A stretch of DNA of 64,000 nt from Candidatus Woesearchaeota archaeon (GTDB lineage Archaea; Nanobdellota; Nanobdellia; Tiddalikarchaeales; Tiddalikarchaeaceae), in assembly GCA_964457955.1 (NCBI GenBank), contig CAYWEY010000003.1, positions 14,439 to 78,438 on the forward strand, read 5' to 3'. The notes beneath the pieces are model-generated. The model did no database searches. It saw nothing but the letters and a program-made list of their open reading frames with translations, and was not told where the DNA came from. Each line of letters begins with the position of its first letter. The first letter of the stretch is position 1. The translations under genes and the position numbers were made by a program. Of the stretch, positions 7,246-46,297 are shown in pieces.

Positions 7246-7282
7246 GATAATTAATGATATTTTTTTATTTAATAAAATTATT

Positions 7283-7356
7283 GGGCTTGCCCGGATTTGA
7301 ACCGGGATCGCGAGGCCCCGAACCTCGAATCATAAACCAAGTTAGACTACAAGCCC
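7283..7356 (-). tRNA. tRNA-Pro (anticodon CGG)
   Basis: Minus-strand cloverleaf: acceptor GGGCUUG, anticodon stem-loop CGAGG-UUCGGGG-CCUCG, T-arm CCCGGUUCAAAUCCGGG. Confidence 0.8.
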
Positions 7357-11687: not shown

Positions 11688-11726
11688 AAATCCTATTTCT
11701 GGATTCAATAGTATAAAAATTATATC

Positions 11727-11895
11727 GGGCTCGAGGGGATTTGAACCCCCGACCTACTGCTTAATCCCCTAAATATGTTCATAGTAGGTCAGTGTCTTCA
11801 TATGATTTCATGAGTAAAATCTCAGTTGACCTTCTTCTAATCATAATTTTTTAGGTTAGGAGGCAGTCGCTCTATCCAAACTGAGCTACGAGCCC
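11727..11895 (-). tRNA. tRNA-Arg (anticodon CCT) with a 95-nt intron at the canonical 37/38 position
   Basis: 5' exon 11857-11895 (GGGCUCGUAGCUCAGUUUGGAUAGAGCGACUGCCUCCUA) and 3' exon 11727-11761 (AGCAGUAGGUCGGGGGUUCAAAUCCCCUCGAGCCC) join to a 74-nt cloverleaf; intron 11762-11856. Confidence 0.7.
11789..11844 (-). ncRNA. candidate C/D-box sRNA embedded in the tRNA-Arg(CCT) intron
   Basis: In tRNA orientation: AUGAUUA (C-like), 12 nt, CUGA (D'), 10 nt, AUGAAAU (weak C'), 12 nt, CUGA (D). 56 nt, typical archaeal C/D sRNA size; the C box deviates from RUGAUGA. Confidence 0.35.
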
Positions 11896-12397
11896 ACAAA
11901 TAATATAATCGAATTTTGTTTTTTTTAAACTTTTACTTTAGATTCTTGAATAAACCATTTATTCAAGTAATTGTCTGCATTAACACTTCTCTTGTTATAC
12001 TCTATTTTTTTTTCTAAAACGTTTTTAAAATAATCTCTATACTCTTTTCTTTATTCATGCCTGGATTGAATAAAATATTCAATTAACTCCTGTCGCTGAA
12101 AAGATTTTCATCATTCAATTCTTTGTATAATCCGCGAAGTTCATCCACCATATTATTGAGGTTAAATTAAAGACTCCTCTTCATTTATATTTCGGAAGAT
12201 TTCTAAGAACCATAAGAGAATTCTCAATAATAATTCCTGTATTTTAATGTTTTCTTTAAACTATTCCTTCTCTGAGAATACTGGCACCGCATAATGAAAT
12301 CAGGCAAATATCAGAACCAGTATTATCAATTATCTTATTTTTATTAATCATCTAATTTGAGAAAATAATATTTTTCTTTTTTAAATTTTTGTTGAAG

Positions 12398-12472
12398 CGG
12401 CCCCGGAGGGATTTGAACCCCCGATCTACTGCTTAGAAGGCAGCCGCCTTATCCAGACTAGGCTACGGGGCC
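12398..12472 (-). tRNA. tRNA-Arg (anticodon TCT)
   Basis: Cloverleaf: acceptor GGCCCCG, anticodon loop CUUCUAA; T-arm and variable region nearly identical to the intron-containing tRNA-Arg(CCT). Confidence 0.8.
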
Positions 12473-19161: not shown

Positions 19162-19435
19162 GTGGTTGGTTAGTACCCTGCCTTCTGTACAACCCCTATT
19201 AACTTTGAATAGTAGGGTGTTGGCAACATTCTACTAAGCGCACCAGTGTGCTTGCACTTCTCAACAGGTTAAGAGATTTTCCATCCCAAATTCATGAAAC
19301 CTCAATTCAAATATCATCGTGCTCATGAAAGGGTGTTTTTCTGCTTCTCATTAACAAATCCTTAAGATTAATTGTCTGTTTCTCAGTGGGCAGAGGTTCC
19401 CCAGCAATCAGCCGTGAGTTGCCTAAACCAACCAC
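19162..19435. ncRNA. unidentified GC-enriched structured RNA candidate (~274 nt)
   Basis: ~42% GC island in ~28% GC DNA; perfect 10-bp terminal helix GTGGTTGGTT/AACCAACCAC plus several internal hairpins; no ORF. Could not be matched to 5S, SRP RNA or RNase P RNA consensus by eye. Confidence 0.3.
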
Positions 19436-19989: not shown

Positions 19990-22935
19990 ATTATTTGTGA
20001 GTTTCAGCTTATTAGTGAACGCGGGCTTAACACGTCGTTGCCTTCGTGCTTACACCCCGTTTCTATCTAACCCATCATTTAATGGAAAGCTTCAGACGAT
20101 GCCTCTTTTTGCGGAGGGCTTCGAGCTTAGATGCTTTCAGCTCTTATCCCATTGGGACGTAGCTGCCCAGCGTGCCTTGTCAGACAACTGGTAGACCAGT
20201 GGTCCCGGAGGATCGTTCCTCTCGTACTCAACCCTCCTTCCACTCAGGCATCGAACACTTCCAGTAGATATAAGCCGAACTGAGTCACCTCGTTCTGAAC
20301 CCAGCTCACGATCCCTTTTAATCGGTGAACACCCGCACCCTTGGCCGCTTGTGTACGGCCAGGATAGAGAGAGCCGACATCGATGAAGCAAGCCCCGCCG
20401 TAGATGCATTCTCCCGGGCGGGACAACTCTGTTATCCCCAGGGTAGCTTTTCTGTCAGACGTATTCCTCAAAAAAAGGATATATACGCGTTCGCTAAACC
20501 ACACTTTCGTGTCAGAACTTCTCGCTGTGCGAAGTCCTGTCAGGCCAGCTTTTGCTTTTGCACTCTACTCCGGATTTCTGTCCCGGATGAGCTGACCTTA
20601 GGGCGCCGGTGATAAATTTTCGCCGGCGTGCCACCCCAGCCAAACTGCCCGACAACAGGTGTCCCAAGAGATAAATCTCAAGGTAAGCATTATCATCCAT
20701 AATTGACAGTGTCCCATTGACGGCTCAGCAACACCCGAAAGTATTGCGTCGAAGCCTTCTGTCTACGCTTCGAATTACGGGTAATAACGCAGCTGCAGGC
20801 TGCAGTAAAGTTCCTGGGGTCTTCTCATCCCACTGGAAGTCCCCGGCTTCTGCACCGGGCAAGTGTATTCACAGGGTTCAAGTTTGGGACAGTAGGAACC
20901 TAGTTACGTCGTTCGCAAAGCCACTAATTAGATGGCAAGGCATTGCGCTACCATAAGAAGGTCATAGTTACCTCCGTCGTTTACCAGTCCTTAGGCCCGT
21001 TGAACCGGGATTTCAGATACTGGCACTGGACAGACGTCACGGGTTATACAAGACGTTTCCGTTTAGCAACCCGCTATGTTTTTGTTAAACAGTCCGGTTC
21101 CCCTAGTCACTGCGCCCAGCACTCGCAGTCTTAAGACTACGAACGCTGAGACCCCTTCTCCCGAAGTTACGGGGCGAATTTGCCGAGTTCCCTAAACTTG
21201 ATTACACCCTACAGGCCTTAGGCTACTCACCCAGGACACCTGTGTCGGTTCTGGGTACGGTTAATCAGAGTCCTTGAAGATGAGATTTTCACGGGCTCCA
21301 GGAATTAATTGAACTCGAGTACACGAGCTGTTCTCAGTATTAATCCATTTCTCCTCATTACGAGACTCCATGGACTTGTACTGATTAAATAACACGACAG
21401 TGTTACTCAACCTATCCCGAAGCGTCTCTCAATCCTCCTTGCGTTGCCGCACGTATCTGATTAGTACAGGAATATTAACCTGTTTCCTTTTCCCCACTTA
21501 GCAGTTAAGCCGTGAGTTAAGACCGACTAACTCTTCGCTGACGAGCGGTGCGAAGAAACCCTTGTCCTTACGGCCATGTGGATTCTCACCACACTATGAT
21601 GCTACTACCGGCAAGATACTCAAACCCAAAACGGTCCATGCAAACTCACGTTCGCACTTCTAACCACTCAGGTCGCCTTCCTACCCGGACACGTCCTACA
21701 ACGTGTCCCCTAAAGTCTCGGTAATTGGCTTAGCCCCGTCCATTTACAGCGCCACCAACCTTGATGAGTAAGCTATTACGCACTTATTATAGGTTTGCTG
21801 CTTCTAAGCCTACCTCCTCACTGTCTCTGGTTGATGACAACCTCATTTGCACTTAGTCAATATTTTGGGACCTTAACTTTAGTCTGGGTTGTTCCCCTCT
21901 CGAACATAAGGCTTACCCCTATGCTCCGACTCCCACCATCTCAGATATTGCAGCATTCGGAGTTTGACTTGGGATCGGGAAACTTTTGTCTCCTCGCATG
22001 CCAAATCAGTATCTCTACCTCTGCAACCATCTCCGGTGAGGCTAGACTGTGGCCTAATTTGGAAGGAACCAGCTATCGCCGAACACGATTGGCTTTTCAC
22101 CCCTATTCCCAGCTCTCGGGAACGCCTTGCTCACAGTACCCCTACAGTCCTCCACGAACTGGAAAGTCCGCTTCAACTTGTCCAGGAATAGATCGTTCGG
22201 CTTCGGGTATTAAAGCAGTAACTTCAGGCGCTATTCACACCCTGCCCCTCGCATGCTGTGGGCATAATTGCTTTCGCTTCGGCTTCACACTAAACGTGTT
22301 TAACCTCGCCACTACCTTAAATTCCTTGCCTCTTTGTCCAAAAGGAACACTGCAACACTCGAAGTGCCGCAGCCTCCTGTGACCATTAGGTTTCAGGATC
22401 TTTTAACTCCCTTTTACGGGTTCTTTTCAACTTTCCCTCACGGTACTTGTACGCTATCGGTATCCTAACCTATTTAGGGTTGGAAGTTTTTGACTCCCAT
22501 CTTCTTAGAGGAATACCATCCCCTAATACTCTGGGAACTGGATATCATTCTTTTTACTTCCTTTACGGGACTGTCACCCTCTATGGTGCTCTATTCCAAG
22601 AGACTTTAAGTCGTAAAAACAATGAATGTTTCCAGCCCAAAACAGCACATCTCACTCATGTCACCATGACTGATTCACTTTGCCCTATTCCCCTTTCGAT
22701 CGACTCTAATAAGGGAATCCCTAACTTGGTTTCTCTTCCTGCGGGTACTAAGATGATTCAATTCTCCGCGTTCCTCCTGCCAAAAGCAGTAACCCCGAAG
22801 GGTTCGGATTCCTATTCGGGAATTCCTGGCTCAAAGGCTCCATGCGCCTCCCCAGGACTTATCGCAGCTTGGCACGCCCTTCATCAGGGTTAGGATCCAA
22901 GTCATCCACCTAATGGCGTCTTTACTCCACATCAT
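19990..22935 (-). rRNA. rrl: 23S (LSU) ribosomal RNA
   Basis: Minus strand 5' region GGUGGAUGACUUGG...CCCUGAUGAAGGGCGUGCCAAGCUGCGAUAAG (22861-22910), sarcin-ricin loop AGUACGAGAGGAACGAUC (20215-20232), GC-rich ~2.95 kb with no coding potential; ends approximate (+/-40 nt). Confidence 0.9.
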
Positions 22936-25539: not shown

Positions 25540-26526
25540 ATGAAAATAAAGAACAAATTGTTATTGATTATTTTAATGATTTTTTTAGGAATATTCATAA
25601 TTTATTTTTCAATACCCTTCCTTGACTTAATAATAATAAGTGCATTGATTTCTTTTGCACTCCAGCCTGTTAAGAAAAAACTTGAAGAAAAAATAAGTGA
25701 TGAAACTACTGTTGTTTTGTTATCAACATTATTCAGTTTTGCGATAATAATAATATTTTCTTATTTCTTCTTCAATACTGTATTATCAGGTATTAAAATA
25801 TTCAGTGATTTAGTTAGTGGTAAGGAAGAAATACAATTAATAAACAGGACATTCACGATTTTTGAATCATATCAAATATCCGAACCCTTGACTGCTGAAG
25901 GAATAAAAAGCTTAGTGAACTTAGTTCAAAGACTTATATTATTAACTCCCCGTTTTATTCTAAGTATATTCGTACTTTTATTATTCACTTATTACTTTAA
26001 TAAGAACGGTAAGGATATAAAGAATAAATTAGAGTCAATAATTCCTCCAGGAGAGATTGTTTATTTCAGAAAATTTTTTCGGAGATCTAAGGAAATGATG
26101 AAAGGAGTTTTTATAGTTCAATTATCTGGGGCTTTAAGCCAGTCTTTCCTTATACTTGTTTTTTTGCTTATACTTAATGTTCCTTTTGCAATAGAATTCT
26201 CATTCCTTGGATTCATATTATCATTATTCGGGATGTCATCAAGTTTTGTAATAATTTTTTTAATAATTTATTATGCTTTAAGTTCGAACTATTTATATGT
26301 TATTATACTCATGGTCTTATTCTTAATCATAATAAATATTGATGATATAGTGAAGCCCTTAATTGCTAAAAGAGTAATGAATGCTAATCCATTACTATTA
26401 TTAACAGGAATAATTGGAGGAGCAGTGAGTTTTGGAGCAACAGGATTCATAATAGGTCCATTAATCGCAGTAATTCTCCAGTCATCAATAGAGGTGTTGT
26501 TTGAAGAAAATGAGGTTAGTGTTTGA
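25540..26526 (+). CDS. AI-2E family (PerM/UPF0118) membrane transporter
   Basis: 328 aa, ~8 TM helices, C-terminal GGAVSFGATGFIIGPLIAVIL motif. Confidence 0.5.
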   Translation: MKIKNKLLLIILMIFLGIFIIYFSIPFLDLIIISALISFALQPVKKKLEEKISDETTVVLLSTLFSFAIIIIFSYFFFNTVLSGIKIFSDLVSGKEEIQLINRTFTIFESYQISEPLTAEGIKSLVNLVQRLILLTPRFILSIFVLLLFTYYFNKNGKDIKNKLESIIPPGEIVYFRKFFRRSKEMMKGVFIVQLSGALSQSFLILVFLLILNVPFAIEFSFLGFILSLFGMSSSFVIIFLIIYYALSSNYLYVIILMVLFLIIINIDDIVKPLIAKRVMNANPLLLLTGIIGGAVSFGATGFIIGPLIAVILQSSIEVLFEENEVSV

Positions 26527-26884
26527 AAAAGCATTAAGAGAAGAAGAGAAGATTAAAGACATTGTCAGCGTTCTTGAATGGGATTATATAAAAACCGAGT
26601 ATGTTAAATGTGTGTATTCAGGTAATAGTAGTTCAAAAGCAATCGCGCGTATCTGGAGCACTCCCAGAATATTCTCTTATGCTTTTGGAATAATTCCTAT
26701 GTATGTTATTGAATTAATCAGAAAAAAATATGATAAACTAAGTGAATCTGAAAAGAATAAAGTACTAATCCATGAATTAATGCATATTCCTAAAACTTTT
26801 AGCGGAGCATTAAGATCACACAGGTTTCATAAAGAAATAGACAGAGTATACAATAATTATGTTTCTCTGAAGAAAAAAATTTAA
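26501..26884 (+). CDS. putative zinc metallopeptidase (HExxH; YgjP/SprT-like)
   Basis: LIHELMHIP...SHRFHKE. Confidence 0.4.
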   Translation: MKKMRLVFEKALREEEKIKDIVSVLEWDYIKTEYVKCVYSGNSSSKAIARIWSTPRIFSYAFGIIPMYVIELIRKKYDKLSESEKNKVLIHELMHIPKTFSGALRSHRFHKEIDRVYNNYVSLKKKI

Positions 26885-34269: not shown

Positions 34270-35553
34270 TTATTTTGGAGTTGTACTTCCCCACTTGTCA
34301 AGAGCTTTTTTTAATTCTTTATGCTTTTCTGCGTATTCTTCTACACTGATGTCTTTCATTATTGCAGTTATTGATTGTCTTAATGCTTTGGCTCCATTAT
34401 GTGTTCCATCAGGATGACCATGAACTCCTCCTCCAGCCTGTATTAATATATTGGAGCCCAATAAGTCAATAAGCCTCTTTATTATTCCCGGATGAAGTCC
34501 TCCACTGCAAGTTCCGAATACAGGTTTTGTACCATACCATTCCTGCTCTAATAATAATTTTCCTTCAGTGTTTGACATTAATGACGTCTTTGTATGATTG
34601 TCACTCACTTCTTTTTTGTCACCCACCAGTTTACCAAGTCCACCTATATGAAGGTTGTCAACACCTATTATTCTTGCTATTTCAGCAATCACTTTCATAC
34701 TCATCCCATGTTTTGGGTTTCTGTCAAAAGCTGCGTGGAATGCGCGGTGAGCATGTATTGCAAGCCCTAATTCTTCGCATTTATCTCTTATAGTCTGGAC
34801 TCCTCCCCACCCAACAGTAAGTATATCAACCATAACGTATTCATTATCATATTCTTTAACAAGTTCTGCTCTTCTTTTCATTTCTTCAGTTTCTGCAGTA
34901 ATGTTCACAAAATAACTTTTTGTTTCTCCTGTCTCTTTCTCTGCTTTCTCCCTCATCTTCATACTTAAGTCAAGTCTTTTCTTAAACTTGTTAAAATTTT
35001 GTGATGTCAAGTTTTCATCATCTTTCAAGAAATCAATTCCTCCAGTCCATGCTTTATAACCAACATCAGCATGTTCTTCTGAATAATACCCTACTTTTGG
35101 TTTAGGAACTGTTGCTGTAAGTGGGCGCTTATCAACTTTCATGAAATCCCTTACACCATTTATTCCAAACTGGGGTCCTTTGAAGCTCTTAATCAATTTT
35201 TTAGGCCAATGAATATCTTCAATTCTTAATCCGTCAATTGCTTTCATTCCAAAAATATTTCCAGCAATACTGCTCAAGATTTGAGGCATATTCCCTTCCT
35301 CGAATAATTCAAATGGGTAAGCTACTTTAACAAAATCCTTATCTATATCATAACAGTGTGCTGATAATTTAGTGATATGCTCAGGAACTCTTAATCCTGC
35401 CCATGTCCCATTGCTAGATTCGCTTGCTACGCGGGCAGCAGCTTTCTCCATGCTAAATCCTTTTGCAGGCGTAATCCTGAATAAGACTATTAAATCATCT
35501 TTTGCAGGCGCATAATTCATGTCAAGAAAATCTTCATACTTTATCGTTATCAT
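34270..35553 (-). CDS. rbcL: ribulose-1,5-bisphosphate carboxylase/oxygenase, form III (archaeal type)
   Basis: GLKDDENL (carbamylated Lys region), HIGGLGKLVG, GGGVHGHPDG; 427 aa. Confidence 0.9.
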   Translation of the reverse strand: MITIKYEDFLDMNYAPAKDDLIVLFRITPAKGFSMEKAAARVASESSNGTWAGLRVPEHITKLSAHCYDIDKDFVKVAYPFELFEEGNMPQILSSIAGNIFGMKAIDGLRIEDIHWPKKLIKSFKGPQFGINGVRDFMKVDKRPLTATVPKPKVGYYSEEHADVGYKAWTGGIDFLKDDENLTSQNFNKFKKRLDLSMKMREKAEKETGETKSYFVNITAETEEMKRRAELVKEYDNEYVMVDILTVGWGGVQTIRDKCEELGLAIHAHRAFHAAFDRNPKHGMSMKVIAEIARIIGVDNLHIGGLGKLVGDKKEVSDNHTKTSLMSNTEGKLLLEQEWYGTKPVFGTCSGGLHPGIIKRLIDLLGSNILIQAGGGVHGHPDGTHNGAKALRQSITAIMKDISVEEYAEKHKELKKALDKWGSTTPK

Positions 35554-43340: not shown

Positions 43341-44381
43341 ATGAAATCAAAAAAGAAAAAAATTGAGCATGAGAAGAGGATTAGTATTGAATTAATTAAG
43401 AGCGGGCTTAATCCAATAATTAGTCCAAACCCGAATAATAATTGGGAGTCTTGGCAGACTTTCAACCCAGCAGCAATACTTCTGGAAGACAAGGTTCACT
43501 TATTATATCGTGCGATTGGAGATAAAGGTGTCTCCTGTTTTGGTTATGCTTCCTCAAAAAATGGTTTAAGAATTGATGAGAGATTGCCTAATCCCGTATT
43601 TACTCATAAATCTGGTGATGGAAAAAAGTCTTATTATTCCCTGGTCTCAGGTGGGAGTTGGAGTGGGTGTGAAGACCCGAGGCTGGTGAGAGTTAATGAT
43701 GATGATAAGATTTATATGACTTACACAGCGTGCGAGAATGGTTTAAGAGTGGGACTGACTTCTATAAGCGTGAAAGATTTTCTGAATCATGAATGGAACT
43801 GGAATAGAGTAAGATTAATCTCTCCTCCTGGAGAAGTGAATAAGAATTGGGTGTTATTTCCTGAAAAAATAAATAATAAGTACGCTATTCTTCACAGTAT
43901 TTCTCCTGAAATATCAATAACTTATTTAAATAATCTTAATTTTGAAAACAATGAATATATAGAAAGTGATTATGAAAGAGTTGTTAATGGTAATTCATGG
44001 GATTCAGTTCTTAGAGGAGTGGGCGCTCCTCCAATAAAGACTGAGAAGGGATGGCTTGTCTTCTACCATGCTATGAGTCCAGGTGAGATGCATAAGTATA
44101 AAGTAGGAGTGATGCTACTTGATTTAAAAAATCCTACTAGAATAGTTCATAAACATTCTAAACCAGTTCTGGAGCCGGAAGAAGATTATGAGTGGGAGGG
44201 ATTCAAAGGCGGCGTCGTTTATGTTTCAGGTGTAGTTGTTAAAGACGGAGAACTCTTTGTTTATTTTGGTGGTGCAGACAATTATGTTTGCGTAGCACAT
44301 ACTAATTTGCAGAAATTCCTGAAAGCAGTAATATATGATAAAAAATTAGTACTGAAAAAAGACAGGGTTTTGGAAAAATGA
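43341..44381 (+). CDS. GH130-family glycoside hydrolase/phosphorylase (5-bladed beta-propeller)
   Basis: FNPAAILLEDKVHLLYRA, GCEDPRLVRV, YMTYTA, GAPPIKTEKGWLVFYHA motifs. Confidence 0.6.
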   Translation: MKSKKKKIEHEKRISIELIKSGLNPIISPNPNNNWESWQTFNPAAILLEDKVHLLYRAIGDKGVSCFGYASSKNGLRIDERLPNPVFTHKSGDGKKSYYSLVSGGSWSGCEDPRLVRVNDDDKIYMTYTACENGLRVGLTSISVKDFLNHEWNWNRVRLISPPGEVNKNWVLFPEKINNKYAILHSISPEISITYLNNLNFENNEYIESDYERVVNGNSWDSVLRGVGAPPIKTEKGWLVFYHAMSPGEMHKYKVGVMLLDLKNPTRIVHKHSKPVLEPEEDYEWEGFKGGVVYVSGVVVKDGELFVYFGGADNYVCVAHTNLQKFLKAVIYDKKLVLKKDRVLEK

Positions 44382-46297
44382 TAATAAAAAGATGCAAAGA
44401 TAATCCGGTTCTTAAACCAGATAATAAAAGATTCTGGGAAGCTCAAGCAGTTTTTAATGGTTGTCCTGTGAAAAAAGATTCTAAAACGTATTTATTATAC
44501 AGAGCTATCTCCCTGCCTTATTTTGATACTCCTGCGGATAAGAGGATGGAAATATCCAGTATAGGAATAGCTGATAGTAATGACGGAATACATTTTAAGA
44601 ACAGGAAAAGATTCATAATGCCGGAAAAGGAATGGGAGAAGTATGGTTGTGAAGACCCGAGAATAACTAAGTTAAATAATAAGTATTATATTTTCTACAC
44701 TGCTTTATCAACACACCCTTTCTCTGCTCAAGGAATTAAAGTAGGATTGGCTGTAAGCAAGGATTTGAAGACAATTGAAGAAAGACACTTAATCACTCCT
44801 TTCAATGCTAAAGGATTTGCATTATTTCCTGAAAAAATAGAAGGTAAGTATTGGGCAATACTGACAGTTCATACTGATATGCCTCCTGCAAAAATATGTT
44901 TGATAAGTTTTGATAAAGAAGAAGAGATGTGGGATGAAGACTACTGGAAAAAATGGTATGAGGATTATGATAGTCATTCTCTGGGATTGCAGAGGAAACC
45001 GCAAGACCATATAGAGGTTGGTGCGCCTCCGATAAAAACAAAAGAAGGATGGTTATTATTCTATTCTTACATAAGGAATTATTTATCAAATGAAAGGTTC
45101 TTTGGAGTGGAAGTAGTTCTGCTTGATTTAAAAAATCCTTCAAAAATAGTTGCTCGCTTAGAGATGCCAATACTTGGTCCGCATGAATATTATGAAAGAA
45201 TAGGTATGGTTCCAAACGTTGTCTTTCCTTCAGGTGCTGTGAAGAACAAGGATTTAATACACTTATATTATGGTGCGGCGGACACAACATGCTGCAGGGC
45301 GGATATAAGAGAGAGTTATCTGCTTAATTACATGCTCAGGAAAGGTCCGAAAATAAAGTTCAAAAGATTCAAGAATAATCCGATAATAACGCCAAAAGAA
45401 GAGAATAGTTGGGAGACTCTGGCAACATTTAATCCAGCAGCAGTACGTATTAATGATAAAGTTCATATATTATATAGAGCAATGTCTGATGATAATACTT
45501 CAGTCTTGGGTTATGCAATAAGTAAGAATGGTAAAAAAATAGATTATCGTTCAGATAAGCCAGCTTATGTTCCGAGAAAATCATTTGAGGAGAAAAAAAA
45601 TCCTGGAGGAAATTCTGGATGCGAAGATCCGAGACTGACAATTATTGGTGACAAAGTTTACATGTTCTACACAGCTTATGATGGGGTTAATTCACCGAGA
45701 GTTAGTTTTACATGGATAAAGAAGAATGATTTTTTGAAACAGAAATGGGATGAGTGGGTGGAGCCTAAAATAATATCTCCTCCCAATATGGATGACAAGG
45801 ATGCCTGCCTATTTCCTGAAAAAATTGATAATAATTATTATATAATTCATAGAACAGGTGATGACATGGATTTAGCTGTTGTTCCTGACCTCGAGTTCGG
45901 TGAGAACGAGTGGATTGAAGACCTTATATGGATTAAGCCCAGAAATGGTTGGTGGGACAGTAAGAAAGTTGGTGTTGCAGCACCACCATTAAAAATTGAT
46001 GATAATTGGTTAATCCTGTATCATGGTGTTTCAGAAAAAAGTATTTACAGAGTAGGAGCAGTATTAGTTAGTGGAAAAGACCCTTTCAATATTCTTGCCA
46101 GGACTTATGAACCATTATTTGAGCCTGAAGAATCTTATGAAAAAAAAGGAATAGTATCAAATGTTGTTTTCCCGTGCGGTGCAGTAATTATTGATGATGA
46201 ATTACTATTATACTATGGTGGGGGAGACAAAGTCACAGGCGTTGCAAGTATAAAAGTTAATGACTTATTTAAGAAATTAAAAAACAAAAGAATTTAA
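44378..46297 (+). CDS. tandem double GH130-family domain protein
   Basis: 639 aa = two GH130 units (GCEDPRITKL / GAPPIKTKEGW and FNPAAVRINDKVHILYRA / GCEDPRLTII / AAPPLKIDDNW); 4-nt overlap with upstream GH130 gene. Confidence 0.6.
   Translation: MIIKRCKDNPVLKPDNKRFWEAQAVFNGCPVKKDSKTYLLYRAISLPYFDTPADKRMEISSIGIADSNDGIHFKNRKRFIMPEKEWEKYGCEDPRITKLNNKYYIFYTALSTHPFSAQGIKVGLAVSKDLKTIEERHLITPFNAKGFALFPEKIEGKYWAILTVHTDMPPAKICLISFDKEEEMWDEDYWKKWYEDYDSHSLGLQRKPQDHIEVGAPPIKTKEGWLLFYSYIRNYLSNERFFGVEVVLLDLKNPSKIVARLEMPILGPHEYYERIGMVPNVVFPSGAVKNKDLIHLYYGAADTTCCRADIRESYLLNYMLRKGPKIKFKRFKNNPIITPKEENSWETLATFNPAAVRINDKVHILYRAMSDDNTSVLGYAISKNGKKIDYRSDKPAYVPRKSFEEKKNPGGNSGCEDPRLTIIGDKVYMFYTAYDGVNSPRVSFTWIKKNDFLKQKWDEWVEPKIISPPNMDDKDACLFPEKIDNNYYIIHRTGDDMDLAVVPDLEFGENEWIEDLIWIKPRNGWWDSKKVGVAAPPLKIDDNWLILYHGVSEKSIYRVGAVLVSGKDPFNILARTYEPLFEPEESYEKKGIVSNVVFPCGAVIIDDELLLYYGGGDKVTGVASIKVNDLFKKLKNKRI

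Follow-up and report, generated by a model that had tools for sequence, protein, structure and literature searches.

What does an unusually long tRNA intron encode in an archaeon of the DPANN group? The question is raised by a tRNA-Arg(CCU) gene on contig CAYWEY010000003.1 of a Candidatus Woesearchaeota archaeon, within a stretch of 64,000 nucleotides (nt) that was analysed as a whole and is referred to as the window. An earlier note on this DNA proposed that the 95-nt intron of the gene encodes a box C/D small RNA (sRNA). Nine homologous introns and a perfect 10-bp target of the D' guide support this central claim, and on the comparison of these sequences we consider it very probable that a guide RNA of the C/D box type is encoded there.

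The tRNA-Arg(CCU) intron and its relatives

The gene including its intron lies at 11726..11895 on the minus strand, as do all of its parts described below, and gives a pre-tRNA of 170 nt and a mature tRNA of 75 nt without CCA. The Rfam tRNA model RF00005 covered it end to end (model positions 1-71, 51.8 bits), with an insert of ~97 nt in the anticodon loop. Exon 1 (11857..11895, 39 nt) contains positions 1-37 and ends with ACUGC CUCCUA, and exon 2 (11726..11761, 36 nt) runs from A38 through GCAGU AGGUC to the discriminator G. Once joined, the exons folded as a standard cloverleaf with the anticodon CCU (-32.1 kcal/mol). The intron (11762..11856, 95 nt) interrupts the canonical position 37/38, and this position together with a valid cloverleaf from the exons is what is expected of an archaeal tRNA intron of the bulge-helix-bulge (BHB) type. 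The Rfam model and the exon cloverleaf thus bear out the tRNA-Arg(CCU) with a 95-nt intron after position 37 given in the earlier note. The cloverleaf of the 74-nt tRNA described there from 11727 also stood, but its boundary and length needed correction to an end at 11726 and 75 nt. ARAGORN, run on the window, missed the gene.

The intron was parsed by homology as ACCUAAAAAAUU, box C AUGAUUA (11838..11844), the D' guide GAAGAAGGUCAA (11826..11837, 12 nt), box D' CUGA (11822..11825), the D'-C' linker GAUUUUACUCAUGAAAUCAU (11802..11821, 20 nt), box C' AUGAAGA (11795..11801), the D guide CACUGACCUACU (11783..11794, 12 nt), box D AUGA (11779..11782) and ACAUAUUUAGGGGAUUA. Box C aligns with GUGAUGA or AUGAUGA of the relatives and keeps G3 and A4, box D' was placed by the same alignment, box C' was assigned by homology, and box D is a degenerate CUGA, as in the relative L005. 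In the C/D kink-turn (k-turn), the pairs G3.A4, A4.G3 and U5.U2 are retained, and the unusual U6 of box C pairs with the unusual A1 of box D, so that a U-A pair compensates for the usual G6-C1. The same exchange of G-C to U-A was found in the C'/D' pair of the relative L009. The C'/D' motif of the window offers the pairs G.A, A.G, A-U and G-C. The linker forms a 7-bp hairpin (GAUUUUA CUCA UGAAAUC, -3.8 kcal/mol), and such a hairpin has arisen independently in the relative L008, where the linker has 22 nt; the linkers of the other relatives have 3-11 nt. The intron therefore shows the tandem G.A pairs of a terminal C/D motif, internal C'/D' boxes, and two spacers (C-D' and C'-D) of 12 nt each, in agreement with the spacing of ~12 nt of archaeal box C/D RNAs.

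The order read in the earlier note, AUGAUUA-12-CUGA-10-AUGAAAU-12-CUGA, is literally present at 11844..11789, and its C and D' boxes coincide with ours, whereas its C' and D boxes are mis-registered according to the nine homologous introns. The window is A/T-rich (G+C of 30.8%). The double unit ATGA-N15-CTGA, expected 0.005 times per 64-kb strand, occurred once in both strands of the window, inside the intron, and it never appeared when the intron was shuffled 200,000 times. A tolerant pattern derived from the family had a single match in the window, at 11844..11779, with an expectation of 0.12. Under either register, the intron holds the only C/D-like element in 128 kb, that is, in both strands of the window.

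Relatives were searched with an anticodon-arm pattern indifferent to introns. Because it demanded too much of the anticodon stem, this pattern passed over two loci, L011 (Candidatus Tiddalikarchaeum anstoanum, Nanobdellota) and L012 (a Nanoarchaeota metagenome-assembled genome, MAG), in which the element was found at the syntenic position traced via the neighbouring gene for ADP-forming acetyl-CoA synthetase. The scan of the genome collection gave one match, a tRNA-Arg(CCU) gene at 82-241 in a Candidatus Micrarchaeia MAG (L001, JBHHTN010000009.1). Its exons are nearly identical to those of the window, and its intron is an unrelated A/U-rich sequence of 85 nt that has a short GC hairpin but lacks C/D boxes. 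Since the same tRNA carries a boxless intron there, the C/D module is not a by-product of tRNA-Arg(CCU). The intron position 37/38 seems to be old in DPANN and its content variable. In metagenomes, the pattern retrieved seven genes (L002, L003 and L005-L009) with introns of 71-89 nt and canonical boxes, for example GUGAUGA-12-CUGA-5-GUGAUGA-13-CUGA in L002. One further candidate, L004 (1432-1550), was a false positive with a duplicated 5' tRNA half: an intron-less tRNA-Arg(CCU) is preceded by a 37-nt copy of its own 5' half, possibly a scar left where an element had inserted itself into this tRNA gene.

The comparison set thus comprised ten introns, those of the window, L002, L003, L005-L009, L011 and L012. 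The anticodon was CCU in all ten loci, and the anticodon stems covaried between ACUGC/GCAGU, ACAGC/GCUGU (as in L012) and ACACC/GGUGU (as in L011), which indicates that the homologues are live tRNA genes. In the common architecture, box C is followed by ~12 nt, D', the linker, C', another ~12 nt and D, and nearly all members have canonical boxes and tandem G.A pairs. Spacers are 12-13 nt in most relatives, the D' spacer being 14 nt in L012 and 16 nt in L005. Across the ten introns, the UGA/GA cores of the boxes were conserved to 90-100% and the D-guide core to 80-100%, and linker and flanks were unalignable. The D-guide core ACUGACCUA stands just upstream of box D in nine of the ten introns, L002 having ACUUGACCUA instead, and the register is identical in nine of the ten. 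The D' guide core AAGAAGGUC is common to the window, L002, L003, L005, L006 and L012. The loci L007-L009 (group B) share the D guide but carry unrelated D' guides, either GAUGGGCGAA or GAUUGGCGGA. Considering that box D reads CCAA in L008 and that C' is degenerate in L007, these three may be decaying copies.

The earlier note had also proposed looking for a BHB motif at the junctions, and one was found. Its 5' half (11856..11867) comprises ACUGC of the anticodon stem, CUCC of the central helix and the 3-nt bulge UA/A, the slash marking the 5' splice site. The 3' half (11756..11773) comprises UUUAGG, GGAU, the 3-nt bulge UA/A with the 3' splice site, and GCAGU. The anticodon stem is accordingly ACUGC/GCAGU, and the inner helix h' is CCUAAA/UUUAGG (11850..11855 with 11773..11768) and doubles as the closing stem of the sRNA. 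Two 3-nt bulges holding the splice sites, with a helix between them, constitute an hBHBh' motif, although the central helix CUCC/GGAU is relaxed, with 3 bp plus C.U. The BHB conformer of the pre-tRNA had a folding energy of -11.6 kcal/mol, as against -9.6 kcal/mol for the constrained minimum free energy (MFE) fold, which cannot include interior loops of more than 30 nt. The central helix is canonical (CUCC/GGAG) in six of the nine relatives (L002, L003, L006, L008, L011 and L012), with the bulges AUA, ACA or AAA. When the relatives were folded with boxes and guides single-stranded, the anticodon stem, CUCC/GGAG, the bulges and a closing stem abutting boxes C and D were obtained, the closing stem being continuous with the BHB. 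This is the arrangement known for pre-tRNA-Trp.

Predicted targets of the two guides

The window contains a few stable RNA genes that could serve as targets, namely an archaeal 23S rRNA (19992..22935, minus strand), RNase P RNA and several tRNAs. Positions 2-11 of the D' guide form 10 uninterrupted Watson-Crick bp with this 23S rRNA at large-subunit (LSU) positions 1972-1981, where the predicted target UGACCUUCUU (20955..20964, minus strand) is the 3' strand of helix 69 (H69). The probability of such a match to the LSU by chance was ~0.002 with shuffled guides and ~0.01 with random 12-mers of the window. The H69 hairpin was identified by the alignment with Rfam LSU_rRNA_archaea, whose archaeal consensus is GgGGGUAACUaUGACCCuCuUAAgG. 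The H69 of the window departs from this consensus (GACCCuC) by a compensated stem pair and reads GACCUUC, and the guide fits the lineage-specific U. Furthermore, the D' guides of L002 and L003 (UAAGAAGGUCA) lengthen the complementarity to the H69 of the window to 11 nt. No match was found between the D' guide and the host tRNA.

The N+5 nucleotide of the D' guide is LSU C1975 (window 20961), which corresponds to Escherichia coli C1920 in the alignment of H69. The pairing hence offers both the helix of at least 9-10 bp and the N+5 nucleotide expected of a guide. Of the complementarity to stable RNAs that the earlier note had suggested searching for, this D' match is the part that materialised, and the D guide as read there, CAUAUGAAGACA, had no target in the window. 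Helices 68-71 are a documented hotspot of guide-directed methylation in archaea (PMC7994747), and C1920 is 2'-O-methylated by TlyA in some bacteria (PMC5778110). With moderate confidence, we predict that the D' guide directs 2'-O-methylation at the C1920 equivalent in H69 of the 23S rRNA.

The D guide appears to point to a different subunit. Its core exactly complements UAGGUCAGU in the 16S rRNA of Halomicrobium (L017), and the guide fits the Rfam archaeal small-subunit (SSU) consensus ACGgcAGGuCAGcaugCCCCGAA, which is the AGGuCAG segment of helix 34 (h34). In AGGUCAG, the N+5 rule selects the first G for this guide, which aligns with E. coli position 1197. The 16S h34 of the organism is predicted to read GUAGGUCAGU. 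Counting from the Cm1639 anchor in the yeast 18S rRNA, we take the N+5 nucleotide to be the homologue of yeast Gm1428 and human Gm1490; G1428 is, in this count, presumably the first G of CAGGUC. With about the same moderate confidence as for the D' guide, we propose that the leading G of the h34 segment is methylated under the direction of the D guide. In eukaryotes, yeast Gm1428 (guided by snR56), human Gm1490 and Arabidopsis Gm1434 are located in helix 34 of the 18S rRNA (PMC2794176, PMC11542601).

Opposing evidence and alternative explanations

Several observations weigh against an active guide RNA directed at rRNA. Boxes C (AUGAUUA), D (AUGA) and C' (AUGAAGA) of the window are degenerate, and the central BHB helix contains a C.U mismatch. 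An Rfam search over the locus at a permissive threshold matched no C/D family and returned snoRNA hits at noise level, the best being sR3 with 12.7 bits as against a cut-off of 41; the archaeal sR families of Rfam are lineage-specific, so this result means only that the RNA does not belong to the curated families. Six base pairs (AGGUCA/UGACCU) can form between the D' and D guides, and their predicted rRNA targets show a corresponding mutual complementarity. When the MFE fold is left unconstrained, both guides are buried in a long hairpin. The mutual pairing of the guides could be due to chance or could be an auto-inhibitory conformation. None of the genes for fibrillarin, Nop5, L7Ae, EndA and RtcB was found in the window by a Pfam scan of 49 open reading frames (ORFs), and extensions of the contig by ~230 nt to the left (L016) and 8 kb to the right (L018) contained no rRNA or C/D ribonucleoprotein (RNP) genes; EndA and RtcB were likewise absent from the added 8 kb. 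Since the RNP-gene negative covers only the 64 kb and these 8 kb, it is uninformative for the whole genome. In this regard, 140 of 148 archaeal genomes encode fibrillarin (PMC7608942). Fibrillarin and NOP56, together with 27 C/D sRNAs, are known from Nanoarchaeum equitans, a member of the same phylum (PMC3491384).

The predicted targets also have points against them. The match of the D' guide to H69 concerns the 23S rRNA of the window itself. In L005 and L012, the distance between the D' core GAAGGUC and box D' is shorter by 1 nt, and L011 has the different D' guide AAAACUAAAGGU; the methylated nucleotide would be shifted in these three unless their own H69 differs. For Tiddalikarchaeum (L011), the 3' strand of H69 opposite this guide would be predicted to read ACCUUUAG... 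The D' guides of group B (GAUGGGCGAA and similar) gave no convincing match to the LSU of the window. For the D guide, the Rfam SSU consensus has c at two flanking positions where the guide needs U, and h34 is inferred as the target from pairing with a haloarchaeal 16S rRNA and with the consensus of archaeal SSU sequences.

The strongest competitor is an RNP acting on the host tRNA itself, in which nucleotides 41-50 of exon 2 (AGUAGGUCGG) would be the partner of the D guide, the outcome being either methylation of G45 or chaperoned folding before splicing. This 10-bp helix, with 8 Watson-Crick pairs, one G.U and one C-G, is the best D-guide match among the stable RNAs of the window, it retains 8-9 bp in L002, L003, L006, L011 and L012, and the tRNA-Trp intron is a precedent for host targeting (PMC4090602). 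However, covariation is absent, the guide core being fixed and the variable loops of the hosts changing between AGGUC, AGAUC, AGACC and AGGCC. A conserved target in trans fits better with a constant core facing a varying loop. Only 3-5 bp form in L005 and L007-L009, guide positions 9-11 (ACU), which are conserved except in L002, have no partner in the T stem, and the D' guide lacks a match in the host tRNA altogether. Among the modifications of archaeal tRNAs, 2'-O-methyl G45 is not known, which also counts against this explanation. Host-directed guides of the tRNA-Trp type would be complementary to the host's anticodon arm, and no such match was seen for either guide. We consider host targeting unlikely, and from the guide sequences it appears that their conserved target is not the host tRNA and that rRNA is targeted in trans. 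The analogy with the tRNA-Trp intron drawn in the earlier note therefore holds for a C/D sRNA nested in an intron and fails for the guides, which do not address the host anticodon arm and appear to be directed at rRNA.

The other explanations concern the intron of the window itself. It might be a decaying relic of a real family, that is, an inactive long intron, as its boxes C, C' and D are all off consensus, its central BHB helix is imperfect, it carries a 20-nt insertion, and L007 and L008 show that copies can degenerate (C' lost; box D changed to CCAA). On the other hand, the deviations are tolerated or compensated, with intact G.A pairs, the U6-A1 pair and an insertion that folds as a hairpin of its own. 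Neither guide is impaired, and the perfect 10-bp fit of the D' guide to the lineage-specific H69 of its own genome argues for continuing selection, which makes a relic rather improbable, more so than host targeting. The register of the earlier note, with C' AUGAAAU (11811..11805), the D guide CAUAUGAAGACA and D CUGA (11792..11789), has a spacing of exactly 12 nt and a canonical box D in its favour. Its CUGA, however, lies inside the D-guide core ACUGACCUA conserved in nine of the ten homologues, and its AUGAAAU belongs to the 3' arm of the window-specific linker hairpin, an insertion that the relatives do not have. With these two boxes out of register, the D guide is also out of register; CAUAUGAAGACA is unconserved and found no target among the tRNAs, the RNase P RNA and the LSU of the window, and its register was rejected after the homologues had been compared. 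That register would leave spacers of 5 and 15 nt to the closing stem and lose the C6-D1 pairing, whereas the homology register has symmetric 5-nt spacers and brings the D guide of the window into the register of eight of the nine relatives. We regard it as very improbable that the register of the earlier note is the functional one. Chance is the least credible explanation, to which we give almost no weight. AUGA and CUGA are common tetramers in a genome of 31% G+C, and no C/D family of Rfam was matched, but a pattern expected 0.005-0.12 times per 64 kb falls exactly in the intron, nine independent homologues carry canonical boxes and conserved guides, and the same tRNA in L001 has an unrelated intron without boxes.

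Proposed pathway and relation to known systems

From the known workings of archaeal C/D RNPs and tRNA splicing, we infer the following pathway for the rRNA-directed guide RNA. The pre-tRNA would be transcribed from its own A/T-rich promoter. L7Ae would bind both the k-turn that AUGAUUA and AUGA form as boxes C and D and the C'/D' motif of AUGAAGA and CUGA, which the 7-bp hairpin closes, and Nop5 and fibrillarin would assemble after it. The splicing endonuclease would cleave the BHB at 37/38, the inner helix of which would serve as the terminal stem of the sRNA. A ligase of the RtcB type would join the exons, and the intron would probably be circularised. The freed RNP would then act in trans on the rRNA, at H69 of the 23S and h34 of the 16S. 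Overall, we judge it likely that the intron is a double-guide box C/D sRNA released by splicing and directed at rRNA.

tRNA-Arg(CCU) is the third tRNA host, after tRNA-Trp and tRNA-Met, of a rare known arrangement. A third host, occurring in several DPANN lineages and apparently directed at rRNA, would make the hosting of guides by tRNA introns recurrent in archaea, in parallel to the intronic small nucleolar RNAs (snoRNAs) of eukaryotes. A C/D guide would also account for the unusually long intron kept in tRNA-Arg(CCU) and overlooked by standard tRNA finders. The two predicted rRNA modifications, at the equivalents of 23S C1920 and 16S G1197, concern intersubunit or decoding-site nucleotides, and bacteria or eukaryotes methylate both sites in other ways. 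A bolder proposal, which we regard as speculative and rather doubtful, is that the DPANN tRNA-Arg(CCU) intron family has become the dedicated vehicle for one of a small number of C/D guides retained by such reduced genomes and couples rRNA methylation at H69 and h34 to tRNA splicing. Should the h34 guide share ancestry with snR56/SNORD25, it would represent in archaea an intron-encoded snoRNA, and its site, that are pan-eukaryotic. In this proposal, the extra pairing of the D guide with exon 2 and with the D' guide might also time the activity of the RNP relative to splicing. No prior description of a guide in a tRNA-Arg(CCU) intron was found in the literature searched, the coverage of which was incomplete.

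The surroundings of the gene were also inspected. The gene order ATP-grasp, tRNA-Arg(UCU), tRNA-Arg(CCU) is retained in L011 and L012. The adjacent tRNA-Arg(UCU) of the window (12397-12472) is intron-less, and the tRNA-Arg(UCU) of a relative (L015, 4102-4192) has a 16-nt intron. ARAGORN reported a tRNA-Pro(CGG) at 7282-7356 (minus strand) that the Rfam tRNA model did not report at its gathering threshold. No 16S or 5S gene is linked to the 23S rRNA gene (19992-22935, minus strand) within the 64 kb, and the RNase P RNA (19163-19434, minus strand; 85.8 bits against an Rfam threshold of 84) lies ~560 nt downstream of it. A 63-codon 'ORF' on the plus strand (20943-21134), antisense to the 23S rRNA, runs through helix 69 (...YHKKVIVTSV...), and several further mechanical ORFs fall inside the rRNA gene; they are not to be annotated as proteins. 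A search for relatives with a spurious ORF from within the LSU matched nothing but itself. The window also encodes a homologue of the RuBisCO large subunit, an ORF resembling a phage-type metallopeptidase and two GH130 phosphorylases (34270-35553, minus strand; 26501-26884, plus strand; 43341-46297, plus strand), and many of its ORFs have no Pfam match, as is typical of DPANN.

Among known systems, the closest is the intron of pre-tRNA-Trp in Euryarchaeota (Haloferax volcanii; Pyrococcus sR50), where a double-guide C/D sRNA likewise fills a long intron at 37/38, the inner BHB helix is the terminal stem, and release needs tRNA splicing (PMC4090602, PMC7994747, PMC11408192). According to reviews up to 2024, no other tRNA intron contains a functional C/D RNA, and the one in tRNA-Trp guides the formation of Cm34 and Um39 in the tRNA that hosts it (PMC4090602, PMC3218864, PMC11408192). 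The present family differs in its host tRNA-Arg(CCU), in its DPANN lineage (Nanobdellota and relatives), and in its guides, which are not directed at C34 and U39 of the host but have the predicted trans targets 23S H69 and 16S h34. A second case was described in N. equitans by Randau in 2012, where the 66-nt intron of elongator tRNA-Met gives rise to a stable and abundant C/D-like RNA by RNA-seq (PMC3491384). It shares with our family the phylum and a tRNA intron with C/D box elements. However, the RNA of N. equitans has one mutated C box, one D box, a GC hairpin and no established target, as opposed to four boxes, two conserved guides and rRNA complementarity in the tRNA-Arg(CCU) family, which is set apart from it by this description. 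Free-standing archaeal C/D sRNAs belong to the same class of 50-70 nt, with RUGAUGA/CUGA boxes, 12-nt spacers, the N+5 rule and targets in helices 68-71 (PMC7994747). In contrast to them, the intron has no independent gene, and it shows a 20-nt hairpin linker and degenerate but compensated boxes.

Outside the archaea, the homology of the h34 target site with that of yeast snR56 and human SNORD25 (U25) is based in part on the count along the yeast 18S rRNA and is therefore presumed. No sequence homology to SNORD25 was detectable, a weak match of the Rfam SNORD25 model lying elsewhere (E = 9). The likeness lies in the predicted N+5 G within (C/U)AGGUC of h34 and in the intron-encoded origin of the guide (PMC2794176, PMC11542601), and the difference lies in the intron, which is a tRNA intron cut by a protein endonuclease and not a spliceosomal one. 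The likeness to bacterial TlyA (type I/II) is one of nucleotide and chemistry, the ribose methylation of C1920 at bridge B2a in H69 (PMC5778110). TlyA achieves it as a stand-alone protein, whereas the intron of tRNA-Arg(CCU) is predicted to do so with an antisense guide in a C/D RNP.

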